64,000 nt of DNA from IMG/VR virus record IMGVR_UViG_3300032116_000062, positions 38,381 through 102,380 of that record, one strand, 5' to 3'. Shown piece after piece: positions 22,957 through 63,871 of this stretch (its first letter is position 1; the number at the start of each line of letters is the position of its first letter). The stretch comes from a virus. The position numbers and the translations under genes are program-made. The notes under the pieces were generated by a model. That model was not told the DNA's origin. It did not search any database and saw nothing but the letters and a program-made list of their open reading frames with translations.

Positions 22957-22958
22957 TT

Positions 22959-41833: not shown

Positions 41834-43441
41834 ATGGATTTAAAACAAATTATGCAAGGCAAAAACCCACAAAACGTGATGCTTGAGCAAACCAGAGGTT
41901 TGAAAGCAAAGTGGGAGAAGACTGGCTTACTTGAAGGAGTAGGTTCAGAAACTTCAAAGCATGGTATGGCAGTGATGCTTGAAAACCAAGCTAAACAATT
42001 ACTCGATGAAGCTACTAGAACTGGTACTTCAGCAGGTTCAGAAGAGTGGGCAGGTGTAGCTCTTCCATTGGTAAGAAGAATTTTTGGTTCAATCGCAGCT
42101 AAAGAATTCGTTTCTGTACAACCGATGAACTTACCTTCAGGTCTTATTTTCTACATGGACTTCAAATATGGTACTAATACTACATTAGGTAGACCAGCTT
42201 CTGGTTCTTCTATGTTCGGTAATGGTGGTACTTTTGGTAAAGACAATTTAGCACCTTCTGGAAACAAATTGGGTTCTACTCAAGCTACTGAAGGTGGTCT
42301 TTATGGTGCAGGTAGATTCGGATACACAATCAACGATACTACTGCAGCTGTAACAGCAACTGTAACTTCTGCTTCTTGGTCTGATGTAAACTTTGATAAT
42401 GCATTATCTGCATCAATTGCATCTGCTAACTCAAGAGTAATGAAAGTTAAAGTTGGATTACCTGCTGATGCTGATTGGCAAGGTGTAAGAGCATTTAAGA
42501 TTTCAGGTTCTGCAACTACAACATTGTTACCAGAGTATACTGTTGTTGATTCATACGGATCTGCATCTTTCGTTCTTTCTGGATCTGCAGTTACCGATAC
42601 AAACGTAGCTACACAGACATTGACTTATCATGTTCAACCAACTGATTACAACAGAGGTGATTTCGAAGATAGAGGTTCTGATCTTCCAATCCCAGAAATT
42701 GAATTGGAATTGAAATCTGAACCAATCGTTGCTAAAACTCGTAAGTTAAAGGCTATCTGGACTCCAGAATTGGCACAAGACTTGAACGCATACCATTCAG
42801 TAGATGCTGAAGCTGAATTAACTCAAATGCTTTCTGAATACATCTCTCTTGAGATTGATTTGGAAATCCTTGAGATGTTGCAGCAAAATGCATTCACAAC
42901 TGATTATTGGTCTGCTAGAGTTGGATATGATTGGAACGGTTCTGCATTTGCAATTGATGCAAACGCAGCAGCAGCTTCAGCGTACACAAAAAGCACTTGG
43001 TATCAAACTTTGGGTATCAAATTGCAGAAAGTTTCTAATAAGATTCACCAATTGACTATGAGAGGTGGTGCAAACTTCATCGTTTGTTCTCCAAACGTAG
43101 CAACTATTCTTGAATCTATGAACGGATTCTCTGCTAACCCAGGTAAAGATGCATTGCAGTTCGCAGCTGGTGTGACTAACATTGGTTCAATCTCTAACAG
43201 ATACGATGTTTATAAGAATCCTTATATGACTGAAAACGTAATCTTGTTAGGTTTCAAAGGTTCTAACTTCTTCGAAACAGGAGCAGTTTACGCACCTTAT
43301 GTACCATTGATTATGACTCCACTTGTTTATGACCCAACCAACTTCACTCCAAGAAGAGGTGTTATGACAAGATACGCTAAGAAGATTGTAAGACCAGAAT
43401 TCTACGGTAAGATCGTAGTTGAAGGTTTACACTCTCTCTAA
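41834..43441 (+). CDS. gp23: Major capsid protein (T4 gp23-like)
   Basis: LPLVRR, VSVQPMNLPSGLIF, AKTRKLKAIWTPELAQDL, YAPYVPL, GVMTRYA. Confidence 0.97.
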   Translation: MDLKQIMQGKNPQNVMLEQTRGLKAKWEKTGLLEGVGSETSKHGMAVMLENQAKQLLDEATRTGTSAGSEEWAGVALPLVRRIFGSIAAKEFVSVQPMNLPSGLIFYMDFKYGTNTTLGRPASGSSMFGNGGTFGKDNLAPSGNKLGSTQATEGGLYGAGRFGYTINDTTAAVTATVTSASWSDVNFDNALSASIASANSRVMKVKVGLPADADWQGVRAFKISGSATTTLLPEYTVVDSYGSASFVLSGSAVTDTNVATQTLTYHVQPTDYNRGDFEDRGSDLPIPEIELELKSEPIVAKTRKLKAIWTPELAQDLNAYHSVDAEAELTQMLSEYISLEIDLEILEMLQQNAFTTDYWSARVGYDWNGSAFAIDANAAAASAYTKSTWYQTLGIKLQKVSNKIHQLTMRGGANFIVCSPNVATILESMNGFSANPGKDALQFAAGVTNIGSISNRYDVYKNPYMTENVILLGFKGSNFFETGAVYAPYVPLIMTPLVYDPTNFTPRRGVMTRYAKKIVRPEFYGKIVVEGLHSL

Positions 43442-43460
43442 TCGTAAGAGTGATTAAATA

Positions 43461-43499
43461 AAGAAAAGGGGAAGTAGAAATACTTCCTCTTTTTTTTTT
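43461..43499 (+). terminator. Rho-independent terminator after capsid gene
   Basis: AAAAGGGGAAGTA-GAAA-TACTTCCTCTTTT followed by T run. Confidence 0.9.
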
Positions 43500-43509
43500 A
43501 AATTAATCC

Positions 43510-43517
43510 ATATTTAT
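43510..43517 (+). promoter_or_regulatory. Putative late promoter variant ATATTTAT
   Basis: Between terminator and ATG 43531. Confidence 0.5.
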
Positions 43518-43530
43518 CTTAAAGTACATT

Positions 43531-44565
43531 ATGCCAAATGCCGGTGATGTTATAGTATTTAGAGCATGGGATTTATACCAAACGACTGCAACGGATAGTT
43601 CGGATTTTCTTGTAAAAAAAGGTGATGGTGATTTGGGATATGTAGAATCTATACAGATAGCAAATACGGGATCCAATACATTTAATGGAAATCAAATAAT
43701 ATCCGGAAATTTAGATGTAACAGGTACTATAACAGGTACAATTACCGCAAATTATTTTACTACAGGTTCAATTCTAATGACCGGCAGTATATCTACTGTC
43801 AATTATATTGATTTTGTAGTAAACCCTACACCTGACCCTGCACATTCGGAAGGTAGAATACATTGGAATTCTGATACAAAAACTTTACAAGTAGATTCGG
43901 ATACCAATAACTTTATGATTGAAGTGGGGCATATGAATGTTGTTCGTGGTAGAAACCCAAATGGTACTACTTTAACAAAGGGAAGTGTTGTGTATATGAG
44001 TGGTGAAAGTGGAAACCGACCTAATTTTTATACCGCAAGTTGGGAAGATGATAGAAGGAGTGCATCCACATTGGGATTGGTAGCTCAAGACATAGGTGGA
44101 AATCAGACCGGGTACGTTGTAACAAATGGAATACTACGTGGAATAAATACTACAGAATATAGTCCCGGAGATGCATTATACCTATCATCATCGGGTAATT
44201 TTACAAAATTTGTACCTGATGCACCTCAACACGAAGTTAGATTGGGTAAAGTAATTACATCTGCTGTATCTGGTATGATATATGTAAATATAATGAACGG
44301 ATATGAATTAAATGAATTACACGATTTAAAAATAGAAACGGGTTCATTAAAAGATGCTGCAACAAATAATGGTGGTAGTTTACTATATTATAGTAGTTCA
44401 CTTTGGGCAAATAATGATAATGTAAGATTAGCACAATCTACAATGATATTAGCATCTGTTTCACAATCTCTCAATTTCCCCAACGATGCAGCTGCACAAG
44501 CAGGTGGTGTACCAGCTGGTGGATTGTACCACACAGATGGAACTATTAAAATTAGATTAGTCTAA
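43531..44565 (+). CDS. Virion structural protein (head decoration or fibre-like)
   Basis: TGSNTFNGNQIISG fibre motif; GYVVTNG...GDALYLSSSG decoration-like domain. Confidence 0.6.
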   Translation: MPNAGDVIVFRAWDLYQTTATDSSDFLVKKGDGDLGYVESIQIANTGSNTFNGNQIISGNLDVTGTITGTITANYFTTGSILMTGSISTVNYIDFVVNPTPDPAHSEGRIHWNSDTKTLQVDSDTNNFMIEVGHMNVVRGRNPNGTTLTKGSVVYMSGESGNRPNFYTASWEDDRRSASTLGLVAQDIGGNQTGYVVTNGILRGINTTEYSPGDALYLSSSGNFTKFVPDAPQHEVRLGKVITSAVSGMIYVNIMNGYELNELHDLKIETGSLKDAATNNGGSLLYYSSSLWANNDNVRLAQSTMILASVSQSLNFPNDAAAQAGGVPAGGLYHTDGTIKIRLV

Positions 44566-44597
44566 TTAAAAAATTTTACCCCTATTTTTTATTCTTA

Positions 44598-44605
44598 TAT
44601 TTATA
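44598..44605 (+). promoter_or_regulatory. Putative late promoter TATTTATA
   Basis: Intergenic, upstream of ATG 44634. Confidence 0.55.
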
Positions 44606-44633
44606 GTAGTATAACTCTATAAACTTATAAATA

Positions 44634-45842
44634 ATGTCTGTAAACACATATTGGTCAGGCTCAACATTAAATGCGTTTTTATTAGCATCGGCATCTGCAG
44701 AAGCAACTCCATTTGGAATATATGATAATGATGCTGATTTCAAAACCGATGCACCTAAAACAGCTGTTTGGGTTGCAAAAAGACTGGGATACCCAATCGT
44801 TAATATTGAATTGGATAATCCTCAAATTTGGGCATGCTTTGAAGAAGCGGTATCAGAATACTCTGCACAGGTTAATCAATTCAATCTCCGCAATAACCTT
44901 GATATTTTAAAGGGACAACCAAAAGGTAAAGTTGCAAGTTTTTCACAAACACTTGTAGATGGTTCCTATCTACCGACAACGATTCGTATGTCTCAACAAT
45001 ATGGAACTTTGGCCGGTGTAGGTGGAAATACCACTATAAAAAGAGGGTATATCAATGTGACAGAATCCGTACAAAAATACGATTTAATGACAAATGCAGT
45101 TGATGTAGAAACATCACAATCGTTTGTAACCACATATACAGGAAGTGCAACAATTGATGTTGTAAAAGTTTTTTATGAAGCAGTTCCTGCGATAACAAGA
45201 TTTTTTGATCCATATTCAGTCGGTGCACAGGGAACACTAAATTTAATGTCTGAATTGGGATTTGGTAACTACTCACCTGCTGCACAGTTTTTGATGATGC
45301 CAATTTATGAGGACGTATTAAGAATGCAGCATATTGAATTCAATGACCAAATAAGAAAATCAGCATTTAGTTTCAATATAGTAGATAATAAATTAGAAAT
45401 ATTTCCAGTACCAAGTTCAAAATCGCCTAAAAAAATATATTTTGATTATATTAGTAGAGATGAATTTGAACATGATTCACAGATAATTCAGCCGGAATCC
45501 CTTTCAGATTACTCCGATATACCATATGATTTTATTCAATATTCAAATATAAATGATGTCGGAAAGCAATGGATAAGAAAATATACATTAGCACTTACAA
45601 AGGAATTATTAGGCGCAATCAGAGAAAAATACAACTCAATACCAATTCCAGATGGTGAGGTTAGTTTAGATGGTGCAGCGTTACGTTCTGAAGCACAAGT
45701 TGAAAAGGATGCATTGATAACGCAGTTAAGAGAAAATTTGGAAGAATTGAGTAGAATTAAAGTGATGGAAAATAAAGCACATGAGGCGGATCACCAACAG
45801 CAAATGTTACAAAAAGTACCATTAAAAATATATGTAGGATAA
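44634..45842 (+). CDS. gp13: Neck/head-tail adaptor (T4 gp13-like)
   Basis: RLGYPIVNIEL, WIRKYTLALTKELLGAIREKY, IPDGEVSLDG. Confidence 0.8.
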   Translation: MSVNTYWSGSTLNAFLLASASAEATPFGIYDNDADFKTDAPKTAVWVAKRLGYPIVNIELDNPQIWACFEEAVSEYSAQVNQFNLRNNLDILKGQPKGKVASFSQTLVDGSYLPTTIRMSQQYGTLAGVGGNTTIKRGYINVTESVQKYDLMTNAVDVETSQSFVTTYTGSATIDVVKVFYEAVPAITRFFDPYSVGAQGTLNLMSELGFGNYSPAAQFLMMPIYEDVLRMQHIEFNDQIRKSAFSFNIVDNKLEIFPVPSSKSPKKIYFDYISRDEFEHDSQIIQPESLSDYSDIPYDFIQYSNINDVGKQWIRKYTLALTKELLGAIREKYNSIPIPDGEVSLDGAALRSEAQVEKDALITQLRENLEELSRIKVMENKAHEADHQQQMLQKVPLKIYVG

Positions 45843-45843
45843 T

Positions 45844-46311
45844 ATGCCAAAATTTATGTTAGATAGAGACTTGCAACTTTTTAGAAGTTTTGCAAGAGAA
45901 TTGGTAGATACTGTAATAGAAAATACTTGCGTTTTATTTAAAGTAAATTTAAGTGAAACAAAAGTAAACATATATGGCGAATCTACAAATAAAACGTGGC
46001 ATCCTGGAGTTGAATTATATGTTTTAATTGATAAAGAACCTGATACTGCAACTTATGAAGGATTTGGTCCGGATGAACAACAAAATATTACATTTAAATT
46101 TGATAGATTGTTATGTGAAGAAAGAAATGCATATCCTGAAATAGGGGATATTATTTATTTTGATAATTCTTATTATGAGATTGATAATACAAATGAAGTA
46201 CAATTTGTCGGAGGCCTACCAGGTGAAGCTAGTCAAAGAAATTGGAGTATTGTATGTTCTACATTTATGGTAAATAAAGCAACACTCAATATTGAAGAAC
46301 GAATTAATTAA
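45844..46311 (+). CDS. Head closure/neck protein (gp14-like)
   Basis: NIYGES, PEIGDIIYF, YYEID; follows gp13-like gene. Confidence 0.65.
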   Translation: MPKFMLDRDLQLFRSFARELVDTVIENTCVLFKVNLSETKVNIYGESTNKTWHPGVELYVLIDKEPDTATYEGFGPDEQQNITFKFDRLLCEERNAYPEIGDIIYFDNSYYEIDNTNEVQFVGGLPGEASQRNWSIVCSTFMVNKATLNIEERIN

Positions 46312-46316
46312 AATAT

Positions 46317-47435
46317 ATGTCTACAAATCCATTAAGAAATAATGAGAGAATAAATCAAGCAAAGACAAGCAAACAAGATTTAAAACAAAGTGTAACTCTA
46401 TTTGATATAGATTACGCAATGATGACTTATTTGGAAGATACACTTTTACCAAATTTAGATGAGAATGGTAAAATGTTAAAGATACCTGTTATATATGGTA
46501 ATTCTGAAAGATGGAATGGTGCAAGGAGACAGGGAGTATATAGAGATGCAAAAGGAAAAATTCAGTTACCATTGATGATGATTAGAAGAACAAACATTGC
46601 AAAAAACGAATCAATGGCAATGTTAAATAGACACGTTTCATATCCAACCATTAGAAAATACTCAAAAGAAAATAGATATGATAGATTTAGTTTGTTTGGA
46701 TTAGGTACAAAACCAAAATATGAATTGTTCAATGTTACAATGCCAGATTATGTTGAGATAAACTATGATTGTATGGTTTGGACAAATTATACCGAACATT
46801 TAAATACTGTTATTGAACAATTACAATTTGCAGGATCTTATTGGGGAGATAAAGATAAATTTAAATTTAATACATCGGTTGGTGATTTTAACGTTGTAAA
46901 TGAAGTTGGGGAAGGAACGGAAAGAATTAACAGAGTTGAATTTTCTTTAAATGTAAAGGCGTATTTATTGCCTGAAAAATTTGATGGAGAAAATACTACA
47001 AAAAAATCAGTAGCTGTAAAAAGATTTATAGTATCAACTGAAACTGATATGACTGCAAACGGAAGAATGGAAGGATTGTTAACAACACCATCTCCATATT
47101 ATGATAATAAAGATTTGGTAGATTTTTTATCTTTAAATAATAGTAAAGTACAAACGCCGATTACAAACAATACCATAACTTTTACGGGAATAAAACCTAT
47201 AAAAACACCACCATTACTGACATCTGCGGTATCAGGAACAATAACAATAAGTGGTGAACCATATGATATAAAAGTTTATATAAATGGTGTTAGATATTAC
47301 TATGGTACACATTTTGGTGTTTCCTATGTGATAGCAACTGGAAATTTCACTATTAATTTTTTACCATTGATTATTGGATTTGATGTTGATTCTGAAGATG
47401 AAATAACTATAACAGGAAAATTCATAGAAATATAA
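46317..47435 (+). CDS. Tail terminator/sheath stabiliser (gp15-like) with C-terminal extension
   Basis: IPVIYGNSERW, QLPLMMIRR, PDYVEINY, VKAYL; position in neck cluster. Confidence 0.65.
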   Translation: MSTNPLRNNERINQAKTSKQDLKQSVTLFDIDYAMMTYLEDTLLPNLDENGKMLKIPVIYGNSERWNGARRQGVYRDAKGKIQLPLMMIRRTNIAKNESMAMLNRHVSYPTIRKYSKENRYDRFSLFGLGTKPKYELFNVTMPDYVEINYDCMVWTNYTEHLNTVIEQLQFAGSYWGDKDKFKFNTSVGDFNVVNEVGEGTERINRVEFSLNVKAYLLPEKFDGENTTKKSVAVKRFIVSTETDMTANGRMEGLLTTPSPYYDNKDLVDFLSLNNSKVQTPITNNTITFTGIKPIKTPPLLTSAVSGTITISGEPYDIKVYINGVRYYYGTHFGVSYVIATGNFTINFLPLIIGFDVDSEDEITITGKFIEI

Positions 47436-47764
47436 TGAAAAGAACTTTACTTGATATAACTCAAAAAATATCTAGAAAGGTTGTTGGTGTTGTATTGACT
47501 CCATTTAATCTACAAGACCCAAACTATTGGATATTTGAAGCAAAAAATTATAGATTCAACGAAATATTGCGAGAAGTCGAATATAGAAAAACGCAAGATC
47601 GGATTTCTATTCACATAAACACACAAAATGTTTCTAATAGAGATTTTTTGGTTGAAGAAGGAAAGAGTGGAATATTAGTAAAATTTATAAAAGCCAATTT
47701 CCAATATGAGTTAGACGAATCTGATGAGATTTATTTAAAAGGAGATATACAAAAATATGCTTAA
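47435..47764 (+). CDS. Hypothetical virion protein
   Basis: Coupled ORF; C-terminus (LDESDEIYLKG) resembles the end of the 46317 protein. Confidence 0.65.
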   Translation: MKRTLLDITQKISRKVVGVVLTPFNLQDPNYWIFEAKNYRFNEILREVEYRKTQDRISIHINTQNVSNRDFLVEEGKSGILVKFIKANFQYELDESDEIYLKGDIQKYA

Positions 47765-48254
47765 CAAATTTAATTCAGCTGCAAAAAAGCTTAACAGAGC
47801 TTTACCAAAAATAAATCCAAAAAATTTAAATGATGATTTGTATTTAACAGGTAGTTTATTGAACATCGATATACCATCAACCCCATCATACGAATCAAAT
47901 GTAAAATCAAATCCAAACCCAACAAAGATAATAAATAATACAAATACTATTTATGAATTTCATAATGAAATTTTACAATTTAGTGCAAGAACTGCAAAAA
48001 AAGCAATTGATTCATATTCCGCTGATGGATTTGGTAAATTAATTATAAACAATGTGAAGTTAGATTATGGAACAGAAGGAGTTTCGCCGGATAATTTTGA
48101 GGTATTGGTAGGAGGACTTCATTTACCAGGAGATTATAGCGTATCTGAAAGTGGCAGTAGTGTTGTTGTAAGTTTAAACGATTTATACATAGATTTTAGT
48201 GGAGATGTTGATGTTAGTAATATTTATGTTATAGGTAAGTTTATAAACATATAA
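47757..48254 (+). CDS. Hypothetical virion protein
   Basis: Coupled ORF; ends YVIGKF, like ITGKF of the 46317 protein. Confidence 0.65.
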   Translation: MLNKFNSAAKKLNRALPKINPKNLNDDLYLTGSLLNIDIPSTPSYESNVKSNPNPTKIINNTNTIYEFHNEILQFSARTAKKAIDSYSADGFGKLIINNVKLDYGTEGVSPDNFEVLVGGLHLPGDYSVSESGSSVVVSLNDLYIDFSGDVDVSNIYVIGKFINI

Positions 48255-48260
48255 GATATC

Positions 48261-48743
48261 ATGGCAACACTAATACAACTAAAGCAAATAGAAAGTAGTT
48301 CCTTTATAATACAGGCGGTTCAATTTGCTGAAACATTTACACAATCCGTAACCAATGTAATAAATGATATTGGATTATTCTCGGCATCCGCACAATTAAC
48401 ATCCGCACTTGATTTACGATATGCATTGAGTGGAACCGTTGGTGGTGGTGGTGATTGGTCAACTATTACTGGTATACCTGAAGGAATAATATCATCATCT
48501 ACACAATTAGATGGAACTACATTGAGAAACATAACTATATCCACCACAGATGCAGATCATTACTCACTCATAGTTAGTGGAGCAATAGGTGTAGTGGATG
48601 CAACGGACTTATCAGGAAGCATAGATGGTGATGAAGATACAACCGTTCCTGCACAAATTTACTTAACAGGCCAACCACTTCCAGTAGACCCTGCAATTAG
48701 TGGAAGTTCCGAAGCAAATATTATTGATCAGGGTGAGTGGTAA
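48261..48743 (+). CDS. Short virion or fibre adaptor protein
   Basis: IQLKQI N-terminus, GIISSS, C-terminal IIDQGEW. Confidence 0.6.
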   Translation: MATLIQLKQIESSSFIIQAVQFAETFTQSVTNVINDIGLFSASAQLTSALDLRYALSGTVGGGGDWSTITGIPEGIISSSTQLDGTTLRNITISTTDADHYSLIVSGAIGVVDATDLSGSIDGDEDTTVPAQIYLTGQPLPVDPAISGSSEANIIDQGEW

Positions 48744-48757
48744 TGAAAAAAAAATGA

Positions 48758-48765
48758 TATTTATA
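48758..48765 (+). promoter_or_regulatory. Putative late promoter TATTTATA
   Basis: Intergenic, upstream of ATG 48813. Confidence 0.55.
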
Positions 48766-48812
48766 TACTGAATAACCTTATCAATACATTTTTTAACGGA
48801 GAATAACTAAAT

Positions 48813-51683
48813 ATGGCTCAAATAATTAAACATAGGCGTGGTAGTTTAGAATCACTAACCAACGTAACAGCATCCCTATCAAAAGGTGAGATAGTAATAG
48901 CATCGGGATCATCGAATATATCACCTACAAACGGATCATCCATTGTATTTGCTGCAGTAGAAAACGGACAGGTACAGGCTATTAATCGTTTTATGAGAGG
49001 AACGACTGTTCCTAATACGTTTTCAAATGCTGCATATAATGGTTTAGTAAATGGAGTTCCATATTACGTTAGTGCATCGAATGTTACACCAACTTTATAT
49101 TTGTTGGGAACGGGTGCAAATGAGGCTATAGATTTGATTGGTAACATACAACCATTCTCCACATCGGTTGATAGTAGATTGGATTCATTAGAGGCTTCCA
49201 CGATAGGGAGTGTATCTCAATTAAATACATTTACCGCATCTGCTGCAATTAGATTAGCAAATTTAGAAAGTAAATCCGCATCGGTAGATATTTCTATAAC
49301 TAATTTAAATGCAAGTTCAGCATCGCAACAGACTAGTATAAATGCAATAAATGTTGTAACGGCAAGTTTATTAGTTGAAACCGCAAATTTAGAATTATTC
49401 ACAGCATCTGCAGCAACAAGACTTTCAAATTTAGAAACCAAATCTGCATCAGTAGATATTAGTGTATCTAATCTAAATAGTTATACTGCATCGGTAAGTG
49501 TTAGCGTATTTAATATAAATGCATTTACCGCATCAGCAAGTAGCAGTATATTTCATTTGAATGCCAGTTCCGCATCACAACAAACTAGCATTAATGCATT
49601 AAACAATAGTAGCGCTTCTTTAAATACTTTTACAGCATCCGCATCTACGAGATTAACAAATCTTGAATCGAAATCCGCATCGGTAGATATTAGTATTAGT
49701 AATATAAACTCATTTACTGCATCGACTGCGACAAGTATAACAAACTTAAACGCAAGTTCTGCATCCCAACAAACAAGTATTGATGCATTAAATACATATA
49801 CAGGCTCTAACAATACTACAAATACAGCACAAAATAATAGATTAACATCTTTAGAAAGTAGAACGGGATCATACGCAACAACAGGTTCTAATACATTCAA
49901 CGGAACACAGATTGTTAGTGGTTCGCTTTATGTTACTCAAGATTTAATTGTAATTGGTTCATCATCCATTTCAAATATAAGTGCAAGCGTACTTAACATT
50001 GGAGATAATCAAATTACACTAAACACATTTACACCTGCGATACGATTTGGTGGAATAAGTGTGATAGATTCTGGATCAACGGGAGCAACTGGATCATTGT
50101 ATTGGGATTCGGTTAATAATCATTGGTTATACGAACATCCATCCGGAGCAAATGAAGGATATAACTCCGCTATACTAATATCGGGCCCTAAAAATACTGG
50201 ATCATTAGGAAATGAAGCAACATTGGTGAGTGGTTCAATAATGATGGCAAGTGGTGAAGATCACGTATCGGGTTCAATAATGAGCCAGGCGGATAATAAT
50301 TCAAAAATTACCGTCGCTGGTGGATTAGATGTAACAGGTACAATTAGTGGTTCTATAAGTGGTATTGGTAATGTAACGGCATTCTCACAATCAGTAGATA
50401 GTAGATTAGATGCGGTTGAGTTATCAATAGGTGGTGGTTCAATAAGTAACGCCATTAGTGCATTAAATAATAGTACCGCTTCACTAAACTCATTTACTGC
50501 ATCTGCAAGTAGTAGACTTACAAATTTAGAAACGAAGTCTGCATCAGTTGATACGAGTATATCAAACTTAAATAGTTATACTGCATCCGCAAGTAGTAGT
50601 ATATTCAATATAAACGCATATACGACTTCGGTAAGTAGTAGTATATTCCACTTAAATGCAAGTTCAGCATCACAGCAGACAAGCATCAACGCACTAAACA
50701 ATAGTAGTGCTTCTTTAAATACCTTTACAGCATCGGCTACAACAAGACTTACAAATTTAGAAAGTAAATCTGCATCGGTTGATATCAATATAACTAATAT
50801 ACATAGCTTTACTGCATCAGTAAGTACAAGTATATTCAATATCAACACTTACACAACTTCTGTAAGTAGTAGTATATTCCATTTGAATGCAAGTACTGCA
50901 TCACAACAGACAAGTATAAATGCACTAAACGTTGCATCCGCATCATTAAATACTTTCACAGCATCAGCAACGACAAGACTTTCAAATTTAGAAACGAAGT
51001 CTGCATCAGTTGATATTAGTATATCGAACTTAAATAGTTACACTACATCGGTAAGTACGAGTATATTCCATTTAAACGCAAGTAGTGCATCGCAGCAGGC
51101 TAGTATAAATGCAATAAATACGATAACCGCAAGTTTATTAACCGAAACTACCAATTTAGAGTTATTTACAGCATCCGCAGCGGTAAGACTTACGAATTTA
51201 GAAAGTAAATCTTCATCTGTTGATAATAGTGTAGCCTCACTAAATTCGTATACATCATCTTTAAAAACGGCAATTGATGTAAATGGTGCAAATCTTATAG
51301 TATTAGGAGATTTGACAGTTCAGGGTAGTACAGTCACATTAAATACTACGGAACTTGTTGTAGAAGATAAATTGATTGTATTAGCATCCGGATCAACAAC
51401 GGCTGCAGCAGCAAATGGTTCAGGAATATTCATCTCCGGTGCAGCTGCATCATTTACATACGCAAACACTGCAAATGCTTGGACAGCAAATATACCATTT
51501 AGTAGTTCCGCATTTACCGGTTCGTTTAATTTACCAACGGGTGGTTCTAGTAAGAGAATTGCATTTAGAGAAACAAATGGTAATTTGGATTTAGTGATTG
51601 CACCGACAGTGGATGGTGATTTCTTACAATGGAACGGAACCGCATTTACTATGAGTAATGTGATAGATGGTGGTTCTTTCTAA
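48813..51683 (+). CDS. Fibre protein with Mtd-N-like start and Ser/Thr-rich coiled-coil repeats
   Basis: IKHRRG...GEI N-terminus; LNTFTASA/LESKSASVD heptad cassettes; ends VIDGGSF. Confidence 0.8.
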   Translation: MAQIIKHRRGSLESLTNVTASLSKGEIVIASGSSNISPTNGSSIVFAAVENGQVQAINRFMRGTTVPNTFSNAAYNGLVNGVPYYVSASNVTPTLYLLGTGANEAIDLIGNIQPFSTSVDSRLDSLEASTIGSVSQLNTFTASAAIRLANLESKSASVDISITNLNASSASQQTSINAINVVTASLLVETANLELFTASAATRLSNLETKSASVDISVSNLNSYTASVSVSVFNINAFTASASSSIFHLNASSASQQTSINALNNSSASLNTFTASASTRLTNLESKSASVDISISNINSFTASTATSITNLNASSASQQTSIDALNTYTGSNNTTNTAQNNRLTSLESRTGSYATTGSNTFNGTQIVSGSLYVTQDLIVIGSSSISNISASVLNIGDNQITLNTFTPAIRFGGISVIDSGSTGATGSLYWDSVNNHWLYEHPSGANEGYNSAILISGPKNTGSLGNEATLVSGSIMMASGEDHVSGSIMSQADNNSKITVAGGLDVTGTISGSISGIGNVTAFSQSVDSRLDAVELSIGGGSISNAISALNNSTASLNSFTASASSRLTNLETKSASVDTSISNLNSYTASASSSIFNINAYTTSVSSSIFHLNASSASQQTSINALNNSSASLNTFTASATTRLTNLESKSASVDINITNIHSFTASVSTSIFNINTYTTSVSSSIFHLNASTASQQTSINALNVASASLNTFTASATTRLSNLETKSASVDISISNLNSYTTSVSTSIFHLNASSASQQASINAINTITASLLTETTNLELFTASAAVRLTNLESKSSSVDNSVASLNSYTSSLKTAIDVNGANLIVLGDLTVQGSTVTLNTTELVVEDKLIVLASGSTTAAAANGSGIFISGAAASFTYANTANAWTANIPFSSSAFTGSFNLPTGGSSKRIAFRETNGNLDLVIAPTVDGDFLQWNGTAFTMSNVIDGGSF
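49220..51260 (+). repeat. Coding 21/42-nt cassette repeats (two blocks)
   Basis: Recurrent AATTTAGAAAGTAAATC.GCATC and AATGCAAGTTC.GCATC units. Confidence 0.85.
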
Positions 51684-51703
51684 CCATTATAAATTATAAA
51701 AAT

Positions 51704-51731
51704 AAAAACCCTTCAATCGAAGGGTTTTTTT
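51704..51731 (+). terminator. Rho-independent terminator, possibly bidirectional
   Basis: AAAAACCCTTC-AATC-GAAGGGTTTTTTT. Confidence 0.9.
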
Positions 51732-51812
51732 ATTTAAATAAATAATATTTATTCAAGTAGTATATACTACATTTTTGTTGTTATATAACATTTTTAAGTA
51801 GATACCATAGAT

Positions 51813-56453: not shown

Positions 56454-56464
56454 ACATAGTTAAT

Positions 56465-56797
56465 ATGAATGGAGCAAATCAAGATGAAGTAATTTATTGG
56501 ATTGACCCAACAAACGGAGATATATGGGAAAGAACGGGAGGGTGTTCACAATGCGGAGATTGTTGTGAAGAAGAGGGTAATGGATTTTCTGTAATCGACG
56601 GAAACGGCCAACCAAATCCTGTTGAAAAGGTAGTAGAAGGTAAGTGTGCATATTTTAGATGGGAGAATGATGGAAAATGTTCTTGTGCCGGTATGAATAC
56701 AAGATATTATCAAAATGGTTGTAGATTTATTCCAACTAAACCAAATCATATTGTTGATTGGCCAAATTGTACATATGTTTTTACGAAAATTAATTAG
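56465..56797 (+). CDS. CxxCxxCC cysteine-cluster protein (YkgJ-like)
   Basis: CSQCGDCC...CAY...C...CRFIP. Confidence 0.7.
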   Translation: MNGANQDEVIYWIDPTNGDIWERTGGCSQCGDCCEEEGNGFSVIDGNGQPNPVEKVVEGKCAYFRWENDGKCSCAGMNTRYYQNGCRFIPTKPNHIVDWPNCTYVFTKIN

Positions 56798-56799
56798 TT

Positions 56800-57492
56800 A
56801 TGGCGATAAAGACATGGACTTTAAGACAGATAAATGTGGGAGGTACTGATCCGAATAGATTATGGTGGGATGAAGCAGCAGGTGCTGCAGAAGCCGCATC
56901 ATCGACGGGATGGGAAGTTGGTAATAACGCAGCGGGTAACTATGCAAGTTTACAGCAAGGACTTGAAGTTCCCAGAGGAACCTTTGCGGCAACAATATTG
57001 CCAAATACAACTGCACCCAATGTCGATAACTCATATGCTGCTACTGCCATATATACACCCCCGACGTTGTTAAATTCGACAGACTCTATTTCTACACTAT
57101 ATGAATATAACGGAGTATTTCCAGCTGGTACTTGGACATTTAATTTTCCTGTAAGAGCGGTCAGTTCAGGCGGTGTACAAGATGGAAGAATAAGCATGCG
57201 TGTTTTCAAAGGTTTAAGAAGTGGCAATACATGGGCATCTGTTACAGAATTAACAACCGCCAGATTACAAGGGACCATCGTAACAAATTTAGCAACAACG
57301 GCAACACAAACATCAACGGTATCATGGGTGGCACCTGCATTTAACTTAAATAATGAATTCCTAATATGTAAGTTAGCATGGGAAATTACAGGAGCAGGTG
57401 GAGCAAATACGAGAGATGTGAATTTAAGATGGGGTACTACCGCAACTATGGTATCACCGAATTTTAAAAAACAAAGACATATTATTTCTTAA
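56800..57492 (+). CDS. Virion beta-rich hypothetical protein
   Basis: Ala/Thr/Gly-rich, PAGTWTF; within fibre cluster. Confidence 0.6.
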   Translation: MAIKTWTLRQINVGGTDPNRLWWDEAAGAAEAASSTGWEVGNNAAGNYASLQQGLEVPRGTFAATILPNTTAPNVDNSYAATAIYTPPTLLNSTDSISTLYEYNGVFPAGTWTFNFPVRAVSSGGVQDGRISMRVFKGLRSGNTWASVTELTTARLQGTIVTNLATTATQTSTVSWVAPAFNLNNEFLICKLAWEITGAGGANTRDVNLRWGTTATMVSPNFKKQRHIIS

Positions 57493-57496
57493 TTTA

Positions 57497-57504
57497 TATT
57501 TATA
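57497..57504 (+). promoter_or_regulatory. Putative late promoter TATTTATA
   Basis: In 15-nt gap, 3 nt before ATG 57508. Confidence 0.55.
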
Positions 57505-57507
57505 GAT

Positions 57508-58470
57508 ATGGCATTAAACTTTCCGACATCTCCGACAAATCTACAGCAATATACAGATAATAATGGTATTGTGTGGGAATATTTGTCTACAAAGGGAGTT
57601 TGGAATAAAAAAAGTGATGTAAACATAAAAGAATTTTCAGGAGCAAAATTATCCCTATCTTCAAATTTAGGATTGGTATCAACCACAACCCAACTTGCAT
57701 TTGATGTAACCGATTTTGATACAGAGTCTTACACAAATATCGTTACAAATCCTTCACGATTAACAATATCAGTAAATGGATTTTATAGAGTAAGTGCACT
57801 ATTCGAAACCGGCCCATTGGGTGCAGGTTCGACCTATAATATTGTAATAAAAAAGAATGGTTCAATAGAACTTGCGAATACAACTGCATCACCAAATCAA
57901 TTTATATCTTATGATGAAGTACTTCAATTGGTATCTGGTGATTATATAGAATGTTATGTACATGAAGATGATGGTATAGGAACATTATTGACAACTACTT
58001 TTTTTGAAATTTATAGGGTAGGGTACTCTATAGGTTCATCTTTCTTACCATTGGACTCTTTTAGTGGGGTGAAGTTAACATTGACCGCAGATGAAAGTAT
58101 GACATCAACACCAACAGCAATCAGTTGGGATGCATCCGATTATAACATAAACGCGGATATAAATGGGAATGTTTATTGGTCAGTAGGGACCCCTGGAAAA
58201 ATTTCGATATATACAAATGGATATTATAGATTTAAATCTTCATTTGTAGCAAATACAGTTGGTGGTGCAAATTCATACAACATTAGTATAAAAGCAACAG
58301 GAAGTACAACTATAGAAAGTGCATCGTTCGGTGCATTAGAAAATATAGAATTGGATGAAACGTATTACTTTCAATCAGGAACATATTTAGAAGCATATGC
58401 AAGTAATACGGGGAGTGTTGGAAAAATAACAACAGATAGTTATTTACAATTAATAAGAATAGGAGTATAA
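57508..58470 (+). CDS. Virion protein with MALNFPTSP anchor and two tandem C1q/TNF-like domains
   Basis: Duplicated FSGxKL...NGxYR...GxYxExY units. Confidence 0.6.
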   Translation: MALNFPTSPTNLQQYTDNNGIVWEYLSTKGVWNKKSDVNIKEFSGAKLSLSSNLGLVSTTTQLAFDVTDFDTESYTNIVTNPSRLTISVNGFYRVSALFETGPLGAGSTYNIVIKKNGSIELANTTASPNQFISYDEVLQLVSGDYIECYVHEDDGIGTLLTTTFFEIYRVGYSIGSSFLPLDSFSGVKLTLTADESMTSTPTAISWDASDYNINADINGNVYWSVGTPGKISIYTNGYYRFKSSFVANTVGGANSYNISIKATGSTTIESASFGALENIELDETYYFQSGTYLEAYASNTGSVGKITTDSYLQLIRIGV

Positions 58471-58481
58471 AATATAAAATT

Positions 58482-58847
58482 ATGGCATTTATAAAATCAA
58501 CAAGTATAGTAACAGATACCGCAATAACGGTTGCCGGATTATCGGGAGGTACGGATGGTAGGGTAGTTAGGATAAACGGAATAAATACCGCAACAAATGC
58601 GAGTAGCTCTGATACAACAACGGAACTTAATGCAGTTTTGTTCAAACAAAATGGAGTTTATTATGCAAGTGGTGTGATAAGTGGATTGACATCTTTATCA
58701 GCGGGAGCTCCGTATTTTTTAACCACGGCTGGAAACATTACATCCACACCACCAACACCAACAACCACAACACGTTGTTTGTATTTGGGGTTTGCATTGA
58801 ATACAACCGATTTATTATTTAGACCAGGAATACCAATATCAGGATAA
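58482..58847 (+). CDS. Small virion protein (decoration-like)
   Basis: GLTSLSAGAPYFLTTAG...LGFALNTTDL. Confidence 0.6.
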   Translation: MAFIKSTSIVTDTAITVAGLSGGTDGRVVRINGINTATNASSSDTTTELNAVLFKQNGVYYASGVISGLTSLSAGAPYFLTTAGNITSTPPTPTTTTRCLYLGFALNTTDLLFRPGIPISG

Positions 58848-58848
58848 T

Positions 58849-59532
58849 ATGAAAGTATATAATTGGGATTTGGCGGGATTTGAAAATGCATATAATAAGT
58901 ACTATTACATGCCACATTTAAATGAGTGTGATTCCGATGGAATCGATGGTGAAGGACATTTTCATGCAACATTGGGAGAATGTGGACGGGCATCTTGTGT
59001 ATGTGCATTTGAGGATGAACATATTACATATTCAAGATTATTTTTTGAAGGAGATTCTATTTTTAAAACCCGTGCAGATAATGTAGTTAATATTTTAAAC
59101 ATTCCAAATGGTAGTAAAATATTGGTAGTTGGGTGTGCTTTTGGTTATTTAATGGAAGAGTTAGCAAATAAACGAATGAATGTTTGGGGATGTGATACAT
59201 CCGATTATATCCATTTAAACACAGATACTGAAGCAACATATCCAATACATAATGTGGATGTAACATCTGCAAATTTTTTAAATGAGATAAGAGAACAAAC
59301 CGGAATACAATATTTTGATTATATAATCACAGAAGATGTACTGACATCCTACGATGAGTATACTACTATATTTTCTAATATAGAATCTATTTTGAATCCT
59401 AATAAATCTTTAAAAAATATCATACATATAGTTGATACAAAGTGTGGTTTGCCATTTATCGGCAAATCATTAAATGAGTGGAATCTTATAAACGATTCCT
59501 ATACTTGGCTAGATGGTGATGCTAAATTATAA
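58849..59532 (+). CDS. Class I SAM-dependent methyltransferase-like protein
   Basis: ILVVGCAFGYL, WGCDTS, FDYIITEDVL. Confidence 0.65.
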   Translation: MKVYNWDLAGFENAYNKYYYMPHLNECDSDGIDGEGHFHATLGECGRASCVCAFEDEHITYSRLFFEGDSIFKTRADNVVNILNIPNGSKILVVGCAFGYLMEELANKRMNVWGCDTSDYIHLNTDTEATYPIHNVDVTSANFLNEIREQTGIQYFDYIITEDVLTSYDEYTTIFSNIESILNPNKSLKNIIHIVDTKCGLPFIGKSLNEWNLINDSYTWLDGDAKL

Positions 59533-59535
59533 AAT

Positions 59536-59697
59536 ATGTGTCCAATTTGTATATTATCAACTATTTTTTATTTTTTAATTTGGATAGTTGGATTGTTCGG
59601 ATTTAAAAGATTTGTAAAATGGGCAAAATTTAAATATTATAATTGGTCCAAATGCAAGTGCGAAAAATGTAAAAAAAGAGAAATAAATGGCTATTAG
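59536..59697 (+). CDS. Small membrane protein (53 aa) with Cys motifs, missing from ORF track
   Basis: MCPIC, hydrophobic helix, CKCEKC; fills the gap and overlaps next start. Confidence 0.55.
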   Translation: MCPICILSTIFYFLIWIVGLFGFKRFVKWAKFKYYNWSKCKCEKCKKREINGY

Positions 59698-62600
59698 TAA
59701 CATAGTTAGAGAACTTAATTTATCGGGATCCACCGCAAATTTATATTTAAATCATCCTGCAAATTCAGGTATGAGTGATGGATATTGGTATTACTATTCA
59801 TCTAGTGTTGCAAATAATACATTGACAGCAAAAATAAAACCATATAGATGGGGTGAACCATTACCCATTGTAAACGGAGGAAATCATTTAAGTTTAGATG
59901 GAACATCTGCACTTATATCTGAAAGTATAGGGAATAGAACTAGAGTTTTTCATGGTGGTACAATTATAAGAATAGGTTCGGGAATAAATAATGTAACTAG
60001 TCTTGCAGAAGATGATGCATTTTTCTTTTATCACATTGGATCTCTTAATGCATCGGATACTATTGGTTATTGGGATAGAGCGTATTTGGCAGCAGGTTCA
60101 TCCGATTGGGACTATTATCAATACCACCAACATAATCCAAACGTATATCCTGATTATGAAAATGGTCGTTTAACATTTGTAGCAGATGATTATATAAACC
60201 CATCAGATAAAAAATATGGATATGTACAACCTGTATCATTGGTTAGTATGGGAAGTAGGTATCAAAATATTTTATCAAGGATACATCAACCATCTATTGG
60301 TGGTGCACACTCATCACATACGGATTTAAATTTAGGAAGTAGTAATACAAGTGATTATTTTAATGGTGGTATAATCGCAGGAACATCTGATAGATTCCAC
60401 GCATTTTATTTAAGAGCAAGTGGATCTCAATGGGATGTATTTAGCAAAACCTATGTGTTAGCCAGCAATAACTGGACTGCAGAAAATAATCATGGTACAT
60501 ATGATTTGGCAGACCCCACATTTAATCCTATTGTAACAACCGGAACATATAATAATTATCCATTTAGAGCATCTGTAGGTGCACTATCTGGATCATCTAT
60601 AAACGTTCCTGTAATTTATAATGGAACAGCCGGAACATACGATTTGAAAGTATGGAAATTCCCATCAGCAAATACATTACTAACAGCAACGTTGGAAATA
60701 ACAACTATTTTGACAAGTTCAGTTCAAAGACCGGATTGTCACTTACATTATGTGAATGGTTATTTGACAGCGGTTGTTTCTGATGTAAATAATGGTGGAG
60801 TTGATTACTATAAATATTCTGGAAGTAATTGGGTAAATGAGGGTAGTGTTGTAACAAATGGTAAAAATGAAGTTGTTAGAATACATGGATATGACTTTAA
60901 TACCGCTGATTCTAAATATTATGTATTATTATCCGGAGAGGTATCAGGATCTGGACCAGGAGCATATAGTGGTAGTTATAGTGGTAGTGGAGTATATAGT
61001 TTTAGTGATACTCAACCATTTGATGGATATAAGCATCTATCATTCCAAACAGGAAGTTATGGATTTATAACAAGAAATGCATTACAATCTGGATATTTAA
61101 AAATAATAGAAACGGATGGTAGTTTGGAATACAAATCAGGATCAGAACCACAAAGTATTGCTGATACCGAACAAATATTACAATACGATATATCATCTCC
61201 ACAATTTATAGATAGGAAGGAAACGGATACTACCGGAGATGGATATTTTTACGATGGAATACAATTAAGTGATGGTAGACTTATTTTTGTAGGAAATACA
61301 GAATATAACGATGGTAATGTTGGTGGTAAAGATTTATTGATGGCAATATATCCACAGAGTGAAGGAGAGCGTGATGAGTTTTATGCGGCCGGAACTACAG
61401 GTGATGAATACTTTACATCGATTGTTGAAGATACATCCAATAAAACATTATGGATGACGGGATATACAAAAGGATATCTTGCACAAAAAAGAGATATAAA
61501 AGTACATGGATTTGGTAGAGGAATAGTAGATGGTGCAAGTTCACTTCAATGGGATGATATTAAAATAGATACTGATGGAAATCAATATTTAGTTGGATAT
61601 CATAATACAAATGAAAACATTGTAGCCGCAAAATATGATTATAATTTTGATTTAGTTTGGCAAAAGAATATAAATGCATCGGGATCTGCAAACACAGGAT
61701 CGTCTGCAGCATTAGATTCATCCGGAAGTATTTACATAGCAGCATCAACAAGAGATACTGGATCGGGTGGTGTTGATGCGTTCATTGCTAAATTAAATCA
61801 AAGTGGAAGTATACTTTGGTCCAGAGCATATGGAACATCTGCAAATCAATACGCATCATCGATAGATGTTGTTTCCAAATCCTCAACGGAGTACATTGTT
61901 GTTCCTGTTGTTAGTGGATCATCAACTACCGTTTTAGTTTTAAATCAAAATGGTGGAATAGTAGAGCAAAATACATATTCGGATTTTGTAGTGAACAAAG
62001 TTAGAAAGTCTGATAGTGAAACCGATGGATTTTTCTTACTTGCAGGTAGAGATAGTGCTACACCATCAAAAGCAAAGTTTGCAAAAGGACAAATTCAGCC
62101 GACAGGAAATATGATAAAGTGGATGCAAACGTATTCAACAGGTACAACCGCAAGTATTGCGTATGATATAAAAAATACAGAGAGTGCATCTATTGCGGGT
62201 GGATTGGGATCATTAACGGGTCCTAGATATGTAGTTGTAGGTAAGGATGGTAATAATGCATTTGCTTTAAAATTCGTAGTAGATGAAAGTGCAGGAACAT
62301 TTCAATCAACAAAAGTTTGGGGAAGAAACTTAACATCTGCATCTTTTAATTCTGTGGAAGTTGAACCATATACCGAAAGTGGAAGTAGGTACGTTTATGC
62401 AGTTGGATTCACCAGTGCATCTGCCGAAGGACAGGGTGGTGCTGAAGGTCTTATTGTTAAGTTTGATAACACCGGAAGTAGAGTATGGACTAATACATTA
62501 GGACACACATCCGATGAAAAATTATTATCAATAACAAATGATGTTACAAATAATAATATAATAAGTGCAGGATGGTCGGAATCTCATTCAAATGGTAGAA

Positions 62601-63871
62601 GAACGTTTATATTTAGAAGTGATAAAAGTGGATTCGGAACAGGTAACTATCATTTAGATGGATTTCCTGGTATGCAAATGTGGTACGCATCTAGTTCTCT
62701 ATCAACCAATTTAGTTACAGGTTCATTGGGTACAATATCATCACCATCAAATACTGCAGGTACTTTGGTATTGGTTAGTGGTAGTTTTGAATCAACGGAT
62801 GGTGTTTATAGTCAAGAAATTTATGATGGTGGTACTATATGGGATATGTTTATTGCAAAATTAAATTTAGAATCTTTACAACAACACAAAAATACCGCAG
62901 AACATAAATTGGATTTAACTGATCAGTATCCATCTGCAGAATACATAGATGATTTGTTTACATTTTATCAATTTGGAGCAGCTGGAGATGGTGTGGCAGA
63001 TGACGGAAACTTTTTTGGATATGATATATTGATAATGAGTGGAAGTCGTGATATATTTGTTACGGGACAAACATCTGGAGAAATTGCAAAAAATAATTTG
63101 GGTGGATCTGGTGTATATGATTATATACTTACAAGATTTAACCCAACGACCGAAGAGTGGGAATTTTATCAAAACGGAACATCTGCAGACGAGGAAACAT
63201 ATGCTGCAACCGAAATATCAGATGGTAGTGGTAGTATTGCATTTGTTGGTAGGACTACCGGCATATTAGGAGGAGCCAGCCAGGGTGGTTATGATATATT
63301 TTTAGGAATATATAATCCGATTACAGATGATATAAATTATTATCAAACAGGATCACTTGCAGATGATAGAGCGGTTAATGTACATAATGTTGGTAATAAT
63401 GAAATCGCAATTGTTTATGAAACATCGGATAAAATAACATCAGATGCAGTTGCCGCTGGAGGTATTGATATTGGTGTAATTAAATTTAATTATAGTAGTT
63501 CTTTATGGTCAACATCATCGTATCAAGCTGGTACAAATTTAGATGAAATACTATCTAACGATGGTAAACCATCATTGTATTTAAGCGATAACAGAATTGC
63601 AATAGTCGGAAGAACTCTTGGTGTATTTTCGGATGATTCGACCGTTTATGGAAATAATGATATGTTTTTGGGTTTGTTGGATTTAAACACAGGTACATAT
63701 AAAAAATACCAAATAGGTACGGGTGCAAATGAAACTGCAACTTGTGTATTCTATTTAGGAGGAGGAAAAATATGTATAGGAGGGTATAATGATGGATCGT
63801 TTACTGGCAACACAAATGCGGTGTTTACCAAATTTGATACCATAATATCATTAAAAGGTAAGTCACAATAA
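59687..63871 (+). CDS. Large multi-beta-propeller (SBBP-like) virion protein
   Basis: Repeated DSSGSIYIA/DAFIAKL/WSRAYG, GxT.G...YDI blades. Confidence 0.75.
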   Translation: MAISNIVRELNLSGSTANLYLNHPANSGMSDGYWYYYSSSVANNTLTAKIKPYRWGEPLPIVNGGNHLSLDGTSALISESIGNRTRVFHGGTIIRIGSGINNVTSLAEDDAFFFYHIGSLNASDTIGYWDRAYLAAGSSDWDYYQYHQHNPNVYPDYENGRLTFVADDYINPSDKKYGYVQPVSLVSMGSRYQNILSRIHQPSIGGAHSSHTDLNLGSSNTSDYFNGGIIAGTSDRFHAFYLRASGSQWDVFSKTYVLASNNWTAENNHGTYDLADPTFNPIVTTGTYNNYPFRASVGALSGSSINVPVIYNGTAGTYDLKVWKFPSANTLLTATLEITTILTSSVQRPDCHLHYVNGYLTAVVSDVNNGGVDYYKYSGSNWVNEGSVVTNGKNEVVRIHGYDFNTADSKYYVLLSGEVSGSGPGAYSGSYSGSGVYSFSDTQPFDGYKHLSFQTGSYGFITRNALQSGYLKIIETDGSLEYKSGSEPQSIADTEQILQYDISSPQFIDRKETDTTGDGYFYDGIQLSDGRLIFVGNTEYNDGNVGGKDLLMAIYPQSEGERDEFYAAGTTGDEYFTSIVEDTSNKTLWMTGYTKGYLAQKRDIKVHGFGRGIVDGASSLQWDDIKIDTDGNQYLVGYHNTNENIVAAKYDYNFDLVWQKNINASGSANTGSSAALDSSGSIYIAASTRDTGSGGVDAFIAKLNQSGSILWSRAYGTSANQYASSIDVVSKSSTEYIVVPVVSGSSTTVLVLNQNGGIVEQNTYSDFVVNKVRKSDSETDGFFLLAGRDSATPSKAKFAKGQIQPTGNMIKWMQTYSTGTTASIAYDIKNTESASIAGGLGSLTGPRYVVVGKDGNNAFALKFVVDESAGTFQSTKVWGRNLTSASFNSVEVEPYTESGSRYVYAVGFTSASAEGQGGAEGLIVKFDNTGSRVWTNTLGHTSDEKLLSITNDVTNNNIISAGWSESHSNGRRTFIFRSDKSGFGTGNYHLDGFPGMQMWYASSSLSTNLVTGSLGTISSPSNTAGTLVLVSGSFESTDGVYSQEIYDGGTIWDMFIAKLNLESLQQHKNTAEHKLDLTDQYPSAEYIDDLFTFYQFGAAGDGVADDGNFFGYDILIMSGSRDIFVTGQTSGEIAKNNLGGSGVYDYILTRFNPTTEEWEFYQNGTSADEETYAATEISDGSGSIAFVGRTTGILGGASQGGYDIFLGIYNPITDDINYYQTGSLADDRAVNVHNVGNNEIAIVYETSDKITSDAVAAGGIDIGVIKFNYSSSLWSTSSYQAGTNLDEILSNDGKPSLYLSDNRIAIVGRTLGVFSDDSTVYGNNDMFLGLLDLNTGTYKKYQIGTGANETATCVFYLGGGKICIGGYNDGSFTGNTNAVFTKFDTIISLKGKSQ

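Follow-up and report, generated by a model that had tools for sequence, protein, structure and literature searches.

Virion glycans made by phage-encoded glycosyltransferases have been demonstrated for the mycobacteriophages Che8 and Rita, according to the accounts of Freeman et al. 2023 given in PMC11256854 and PMC10877033. Here we consider a stretch of 64,000 nucleotides (referred to below as the window; positions 38,381 to 102,380 of IMG/VR virus record IMGVR_UViG_3300032116_000062), in which the tripeptide [Ser/Thr]-[Gly/Ala/Ser]-Ser recurs in the exterior virion proteins encoded at positions 41834-63871 and for which an earlier note had proposed that this triplet is an acceptor motif (sequon) for glycans made by an adjacent cluster of sugar genes. 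We confirmed that the triplet excess is real, noncompositional, and directional and that it is concentrated in exterior virion proteins. Its spread throughout the lineage, its independence of the adjacent sugar-gene island, and its origin by repetition in the fibers are likewise matters of observation, and we tentatively favor the view that the triplet is a lineage-specific structural habit of exterior proteins, amplified by repeats, and not a tag for the neighboring sugar genes.

Like the mycobacteriophages, the present virus is a tailed phage that encodes glycosyltransferases whose proposed substrates, the proteins of its capsid and tail, are assembled in the cytoplasm; unlike them, it is T4-like and belongs to a group with 200- to 300-kb genomes, its candidate acceptor is a short triplet distributed over many proteins, and it is known here from sequence alone. 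Serine-rich-repeat adhesins have repeats of the S-A-S type that are glycosylated by GtfA/GtfB, and the lineage shares with them S-A-S-like repeats and two adjacent GT-B-type genes, although this is a resemblance only. ST-turns and Asx-turns are beta-turn motifs of the form Ser/Thr/Asp/Asn-Gly. As in those turns, position i of the phage motif carries a hydroxyl or carboxyl group on its side chain, Gly stands at i+1, and a strand comes next, and the triplet is interchangeable with DGN, NGT, and DG[ST] at equivalent sites; a generic turn preference, however, leaves the three- to four-fold extra density, the Ser at the third position, and the restriction to one lineage unexplained. Chloroviruses are eukaryotic viruses whose Vp54 protein carries N-linked glycans. 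In these viruses, virus-encoded sugar pathways decorate the capsid (PMC9614988, PMC5408694). GmaR, the flagellin O-GlcNAc transferase of Listeria, modifies Ser/Thr residues of a cytoplasmic protein that is already folded and is later built into an external filament (PDB 22ao; PMC9638930).

The proteins of the window that carry the triplet, all encoded on the plus strand, are as follows.

41834-43441, plus strand: gp23-type major capsid protein (PF07068, 4.5e-78, residues 70-526); 6 sites versus 1.9 expected
43531-44565, plus strand: hypervariable protein following the capsid gene, with a fiber-like N-terminal part and no Pfam or PHROG family; 8 sites versus 1.6 expected
44634-45842, plus strand: neck or head-tail adaptor protein (PHROG 211, 5.4e-11); 3 sites versus 1.0 expected
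47757-48254 and 48261-48743, plus strand: two small proteins without a Pfam or PHROG family; 2 sites and 5 sites (versus 1.4 expected), respectively
48813-51683, plus strand: fiber 1, a heptad coiled coil rich in Ser, Thr, Ala, and Asn, with 14- and 77-residue repeats; 58 sites versus 21 expected
51813-56453, plus strand: fiber 2, a paralogue with the cassettes of fiber 1 (blastp, 3e-82); 100 sites versus 32 expected
57508-58470, plus strand: Ser/Thr-rich protein without an assigned family; 4 sites
59687-63871, plus strand: propeller-like protein of 1,394 residues with a repeated blade-like C-terminal part and no Pfam or PHROG match; 31 sites versus 9.1 expected

Together, positions 41834-63871 encode 218 [ST][GAS]S triplets, whereas the compositions of the individual proteins predict 73. 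The two paralogous fibers hold 158 of these (72%), and since those are copies of a single duplicated unit, they do not represent independent events. In the window's non-repeat exterior proteins, 60 triplets were found where 18.7 were expected (P < 0.001 in per-protein shuffles). Over the 15 non-repeat Ser/Thr-rich (S/T-rich) open reading frames (ORFs) of the whole contig, [ST][GA]S occurs 92 times versus 26.1 expected (about 3.5-fold), or versus 30.6 (3.0-fold) when shuffling is confined to 10-residue blocks; the exterior excess thus survives correction for composition, and Ser/Gly content alone was rejected as its explanation for the non-repeat proteins. The order of the residues matters: T[GA]S occurs 35 times and S[GA]T 13 times in the non-repeat S/T-rich ORFs, with an expectation of 12.6 for each, and the third position favors Ser over Thr (92 [ST][GA]S versus 34 [ST][GA]T in the contig's non-repeat proteins). 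In those proteins SGS (4.6-fold), TGS (3.6-fold), and SAS (3.2-fold) are strongly enriched, versus 1.1-fold for SGT and 1.0-fold for SAT; of the five triplets that had been described as recurring, the other two, TAS (1.8-fold) and SSS (2.3-fold), are weak outside the repeats. When all tripeptides were scored, SGS and TGS ranked first and second of 1412 (z of 10.7 and 7.1), so that the motif is not the product of a post hoc choice. GSI and VSG were also among the top five tripeptides, and the flanks of the motif are hydrophobic (49% before and 52% after it, with a background of 33%). Mixed Ser/Gly orders, such as [ST]S[GAS], were not enriched.

The sequence peptides quoted in the earlier note are all present (ASGSS, TSASW, LSASI, ISGSA, GSASF, and LSGSA in the capsid protein and WSGST, ASASA, and YTGSA in the neck protein), and its count of more than 20 in the propeller-like protein is exceeded by the 31 sites found there. 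The rarity that it had reported for enzymes is also seen, with 7 [ST][GAS]S triplets versus 15.7 expected in the window's other proteins, but it is mostly compositional, given that contig ORFs with less than 16% Ser plus Thr have 13 [ST][GA]S triplets versus 15 expected. A cause at the codon or DNA level was discarded, the codons at the motif being diverse; AGT seems, by eye and not by count, to be commoner at the first Ser of the motif than its background share of 26%. Avoidance of deamidation-prone Asn-Gly was discarded as well, because N-G is undepleted except in the Rhodothermus phage RM378. Among the exterior proteins, blastp revealed no paralogy except between the fibers and in three short module matches of 21 to 39 residues.

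All six [ST][GAS]S sites of the capsid protein lie within its variable insertion domain (residues 123-251), which we take to be exterior on the particle from what is known of T4 gp23. The 80 capsid orthologues have 3 to 10 sites each, with a mean of 6.4 versus 2.0 expected. At site 179, the class [ST][GA]S is kept in 81 of 81 orthologues while SAS, SGS, TAS, and TGS replace one another, and at site 192 it is kept in 77 of 81, again with residues swapping inside the class; at site 123, SGS/TGS alternates with NGT/QGT. An AlphaFold2 (AF2) model of the capsid protein, with a mean predicted local distance difference test score (pLDDT) of 58 and values of 65 to 84 in the insertion domain, gives no accessibility; it would place the sites at strand ends, at a helix N-cap, in a helix interior, and in loops, with only moderate confidence for the insertion domain. 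The protein encoded next, at 43531, shows 55% identity between contigs whose capsid proteins are 97% identical, and yet both of its GSI units are retained without change in homologues of as little as 36% identity, and a site preceding an invariant Trp reads SSS, SAS, TGS, or SGS in six of six homologues. Its AF2 model (mean pLDDT of 48) is unusable. This protein has a short fiber-like module in common with both fibers, and the shared module together with the hypervariability suggests a possible role as a decoration or fiber of the head.

In the fibers, sequence periodicity appears at lags of 14, 28, 42, 63, 77, and 84, all multiples of 7, and the hydrophobic period peaks at 3.5; these two features are those of a heptad coiled coil, and the Pfam matches of fiber 1, in which Tandem Repeats Finder reports a period of 231 bp, are to coiled-coil families only. 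The repeat unit reads L-N-x-x-[ST]-A-S, which puts the triplet at heptad positions e, f, and g if Leu occupies position a. The triplets said to lie in nearly every fiber cassette are therefore there, but the cassettes are one duplicated unit. Outside the core, nearly all positions of the fibers are Ser, Thr, Ala, or Asn, and Asn recurs beside the core Leu, which is unusual for an alpha-helical fiber. In the propeller-like protein, several sites occupy equivalent turn positions, with DSSGSIYI, ESGSRYVY, and DGSGSIAF standing where other repeats read DGNQYLV or SDNRIAIV.

The window is the 3'-terminal part of a 102,380-bp contig that is about 54% complete (CheckV), has a guanine-plus-cytosine (GC) content of about 30%, and carries every long ORF on the plus strand. 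A megablast search of window positions 40000-60000 against deposited phages returned zero matches, and the nearest deposited relatives of the capsid protein (41834-43441) are those of the 484-kb uncultured phage LR756508 (53.7% identity), the Microcystis phage Mel-JY01 (53.5%), the Flavobacterium phage immuto (51.8%), and RM378 (39.9%); across all comparisons, identity to the first three was 52 to 55%. In IMG/VR, each of four scans found at least about 500 to 600 related contigs; the relatives compared here are labeled G002, G006, G013 to G017, G025 to G027, G035, G038, and G039.

When the same [ST][GA]S statistic was applied to the S/T-rich ORFs of whole genomes, the excess was 3.6-fold in G002, 3.8-fold in G015, 3.0-fold in G014, 2.9-fold in G013, and 4.6-fold in G039, and it was 2.8-fold in immuto, 2.9-fold in Mel-JY01, and 3.1-fold in RM378. 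Unrelated phages gave lower values (T4, 0.7-fold; T5, 1.4-fold; SPO1, 1.1-fold; A511, 1.7-fold; S-PM2, 1.5-fold; HTVC008M, 1.6-fold), as did one capsid relative, LR756508 (only 1.45-fold). In G002, G015, immuto, and RM378, and in none of the controls, SGS or TGS ranks above all other tripeptides, with z values of 7 to 20 for SGS/TGS in the lineage and top z values of about 4 to 7 in four of five control phages. The excess is a trait of this lineage, not a general phage trait; a generic property of fiber proteins, which had been our first guess, was abandoned in view of the ranges of 0.7- to 1.7-fold in controls and 2.8- to 4.6-fold in relatives. In LR756508, the top tripeptides are DGT (29 versus 7.6 expected) and DGS (27 versus 10.7 expected), and [DN]G[ST] is 2.25-fold enriched. 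The S/T-rich proteins of RM378 overuse, besides TGS, tripeptides of the form T-hydrophobic-S (TLS, TFS, TVS, TYS, and TIS; z of 5 to 7.5). A clade of relatives with a GC fraction of about 0.40 seemed to have a low excess, but this is apparent only, as collagen-like (G-T-S)n fibers raise the expectation there. Long collagen-like (Gly-Thr-Ser)n proteins are encoded near the capsid gene in these relatives (L399 17429-20446; also L323, L372, and L331), where they dominate the S-G-T counts.

The sugar genes that the earlier note had taken to be the partner of the triplet occupy the following region.

1-25412, plus strand: sugar-gene island (Pfam assignments), varying among relatives

The island encodes two enzymes that combine GT7 and LamG domains (2832-5722), a radical S-adenosylmethionine (SAM) protein, a methyltransferase, DUF6071 and DUF5672 proteins, a nucleotidyltransferase, three SDR epimerases, RmlC, and a split thiamine diphosphate (ThDP) enzyme. 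Phage glycosyltransferase genes are thus present beside the structural module, as GT7-LamG and sugar-nucleotide enzymes lying between tail-fiber and head genes: the 25-kb island sits between a tail-fiber gene (contig positions 32632-38364) and the gene for a 1,366-residue polyprotein (window positions 25564-29664). In relatives (L139-L218), the same slot contains a full cluster, one or more GT7-LamG genes alone, or no glycan gene; in G006, it is taken up by genes for a 2OG-Fe(II) oxygenase, a DUF6065 protein, and one uncharacterized product. The G006 tail-fiber gene is enlarged to 4,607 residues. The 27 proteins of the cluster have no homologue in G006, G016, or G017 (contigs as sequenced), and yet the excess in their orthologous structural proteins is 3.0-fold, 4.0-fold, and 3.2-fold, respectively; in one orthologue pair, 7 triplets versus 1.7 expected in G006 correspond to 7 versus 1.6 in the window's phage. 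G014, which has only a GT7-LamG gene in the slot, shows 3.0-fold, and the complete genome of G013, with no GT7 anywhere and a slot without glycan genes, shows 2.9-fold; overall, relatives with a reduced or absent island range from 2.9- to 4.0-fold, versus 3.6- to 4.2-fold for the others. Because the excess is the same whether the island is full, reduced to GT7, or absent, the adjacent cluster is contradicted as the partner of the triplet. The co-occurrence check that the earlier note had named, across relatives, likewise revealed no covariation of motif and adjacent cluster, the island being swappable and G006, G016, G017, G013, and G014 equally enriched. Of its broader claim, that of a selected site shared by unrelated folds, the noncompositional, directional character of the excess stands, as does its occurrence without detectable paralogy, and the site looks maintained; the link to the adjacent cluster is the part that finds no support.

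Among the enriched genomes examined, none was found to be free of all glycosyltransferases. G013 fails as such a control, since it has a second sugar island on the minus strand (about 79000-95500; L222-L223) with GT10-like and GT1-like genes, a DegT aminotransferase, a B12-radical SAM protein, a methyltransferase, a cytidylyltransferase, and homologues of the window's RmlC, SDR, and split ThDP proteins. G039 (251 kb, 4.6-fold) fails too: its contig has GT2 genes, and the point at which it begins lies within a sugar cluster in the syntenic position. G038 is no more decisive than G039.

When genes were sought that the enriched genomes have in common but T4-like controls lack, a trio of glycosyltransferase genes was identified, namely, two adjacent GT4-like genes and a gene for a 207-residue GmaR-like GT2, located beside a PD-(D/E)XK nuclease gene. 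Its positions in three genomes are given below.

G002, 19419-24487: trio; with the nuclease gene, the block spans 18512-24487 (L121-L122)
immuto, L302 3965-8986: trio, immuto35A_89, immuto35A_90, and immuto35A_92
RM378, L303 1166-7270: trio, Rm378p013, Rm378p014, and Rm378p017, more divergent; the nuclease was not found in RM378

The trio was found in nine of nine complete enriched-lineage genomes searched, including G002, G013 (where it lies beside the second sugar island), G014, G015, G035 (a complete member of the clade with a GC fraction of about 0.40, which carries the GT2), immuto, Mel-JY01, and RM378; the GT2 is also present in G025 to G027, where only this gene was searched for. None of the six unrelated control phages searched has the block, and the trio was not found on the G039 contig, which is cut at its sugar cluster. 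The only deposited phages in which the GT2 occurs are immuto, Mel-JY01, and RM378. In a profile comparison, the GT2 matches the 204-residue GmaR chain (PDB 22ao) over its full length (E value of 9.6e-10), a coverage not reached by other GT2 structures, whose matches are confined to its N-terminal half; the similarity to GmaR is weak (about 42 bits), the gene lies off the window's contig, and there is no counterpart of the antirepressor function of GmaR. The best solved relative of both GT4-like proteins is chlorovirus B736L (PDB 3oy2), so that here, as in the chloroviruses, the comparison leads to a virus-encoded GT4, albeit one whose own function is not established. With both GT4s as queries, profile searches of the PDB recovered B736L, TreT, and other GT4s but neither GtfA nor GtfB, which leaves the analogy with the adhesins without sequence support.

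We lean toward ranking a structural habit above a glycosylation sequon, and we infer that structural constraint could account for the triplet with no modification needed. Under this structural reading, the beta-rich proteins (the capsid insertion domain, the 43531 protein, the baseplate-side proteins, and the propeller-like protein) would use hydrophobic-[Ser/Thr]-Gly-Ser-hydrophobic at a turn or strand edge, a place at which other phages and some sister repeats would use Asp/Asn-Gly-Ser/Thr. In the fibers, [ST]-A-S would simply be positions 5 to 7 of the unit L-N-x-x-[ST]-A-S, multiplied some 150 times by tandem duplication. Such a reading is supported by the hydrophobic flanks and the presence of GSI and VSG among the top tripeptides, by the alternation with DGN/SDN in the propeller-like protein and with NGT/QGT at capsid site 123, and by the overuse of DGT/DGS in LR756508, which lacks the excess. 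The T-hydrophobic-S tripeptides of RM378, an in/out strand pattern, support it as well, as do the invariant GSI units of the 43531 protein, the fiber lags in multiples of 7 with their period of 3.5, the unchanged excess in the absence of the island, and the graded values of 1.4- to 1.7-fold in T5, A511, S-PM2, and HTVC008M. Several observations weigh against it. Per 1,000 residues, [ST]G[ST] is three to four times as dense in the lineage as in controls while [DN]G[ST] is not fewer, so that a plain replacement of Asp/Asn by Ser/Thr at turns was rejected and the triplet appears to be an addition, not a swap. Also contrary are the z values for SGS/TGS, far above the top values of most controls; the surplus of T[GA]S relative to S[GA]T, for which structure offers no obvious reason; the differing secondary-structure contexts that the model suggests for the six capsid sites; the turnover or shift in register of several capsid sites while their number stays at about three times expectation; and the predominance of Ser, Thr, or Ala at positions e, f, and g, which is unusual for a coiled coil.

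The principal rival, possible but in our judgment doubtful, is a lineage-wide O-glycosylation acceptor, in which the GT2 and the two GT4s would attach the first sugar in the cytoplasm and the swappable islands would supply or extend a variable glycan. Stated in full, and held with the same reserve, this would mean that the T4-like lineage including immuto and RM378 coats its capsid, neck, baseplate, and fibers with O-glycans at hydrophobic-[Ser/Thr]-[Gly/Ala]-Ser, the GmaR-like GT2 and the GT4s priming and the islands diversifying the coat in the manner of serotype loci. In its favor are the rank of SGS and TGS above other tripeptides in five genomes that share 40 to 100% capsid protein identity, the direction of the excess and its robustness to local composition, and the conservation of the motif class with internal swaps at fixed sites and turnover at others. 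The presence of the trio in every complete enriched-lineage genome searched, the full-length match of the GT2 to GmaR, the kinship of the GT4s with B736L, and the precedent of phage-encoded virion glycosylation in mycobacteriophages, as PMC11256854 relates it from Freeman et al. 2023, point the same way. So does LR756508, which has a single GT4 of the trio and a weaker excess in orthologous structural proteins (10 versus 6.5 expected, compared with 33 versus 11.8 in G002; P of about 0.03 by a Poisson estimate); however, this association amounts to about one independent contrast, which is confounded with phylogeny, the branching being unsettled. Moreover, the trio is situated among replication genes in RM378 and immuto, so that DNA or another substrate is possible; the hydrophobic flanks and invariant positions suit a structural role equally; other phage proteins do not strongly avoid the motif (0.76- to 1.09-fold); and the window's own contig, being incomplete, does not include the trio region. 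In the literature, no report of virion glycosylation was found for immuto, Mel-JY01, or RM378. Less probable by far is some other surface property or modification, such as hydration, low stickiness, phosphorylation, or Ser acylation, which would accord with the preference for Ser at the third position and with fibers that expose Ser/Thr/Ala and not charged residues; no candidate kinase or acyltransferase is linked to the motif, however, and nothing separates this possibility from the two main readings. The original proposal, in which the adjacent 25-kb cluster uses the triplet as its acceptor and cluster and motif go together, now seems quite improbable: the cluster does directly follow the tail-fiber gene and precede the head module on the same strand, and GT7-LamG genes do recur at that position in many relatives, but the slot is variable and relatives without the island, or without any GT7, are enriched nonetheless. 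Least probable of all is an artifact of Ser/Gly/Thr-rich composition, local low complexity, repeats, or post hoc motif choice. The concentration of sites in the repeat fibers and the largely compositional rarity in enzymes would suit it, but the 3.0-fold excess that survives block shuffling without those fibers, the 1.0-fold value for S[GA]T of equal composition, the two top ranks, the near absence of paralogy among the exterior proteins, and the diverse codons speak against it; for the non-repeat proteins, an artifact was tested and rejected.

The excess is thus stronger and wider than was visible from the window alone, and two cultured members of the lineage, immuto and RM378, would allow a direct test of whether the triplet is modified. 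If the triplet is structural, it would provide a clean example of a lineage-specific tripeptide bias able to mimic a sequon. If it is instead a sequon, phage-made virion glycosylation would have its first acceptor defined by sequence, in an abundant environmental lineage, and the variable sugar islands would be "serotype" loci of the virion, which would bear on host recognition, grazing, and defense.

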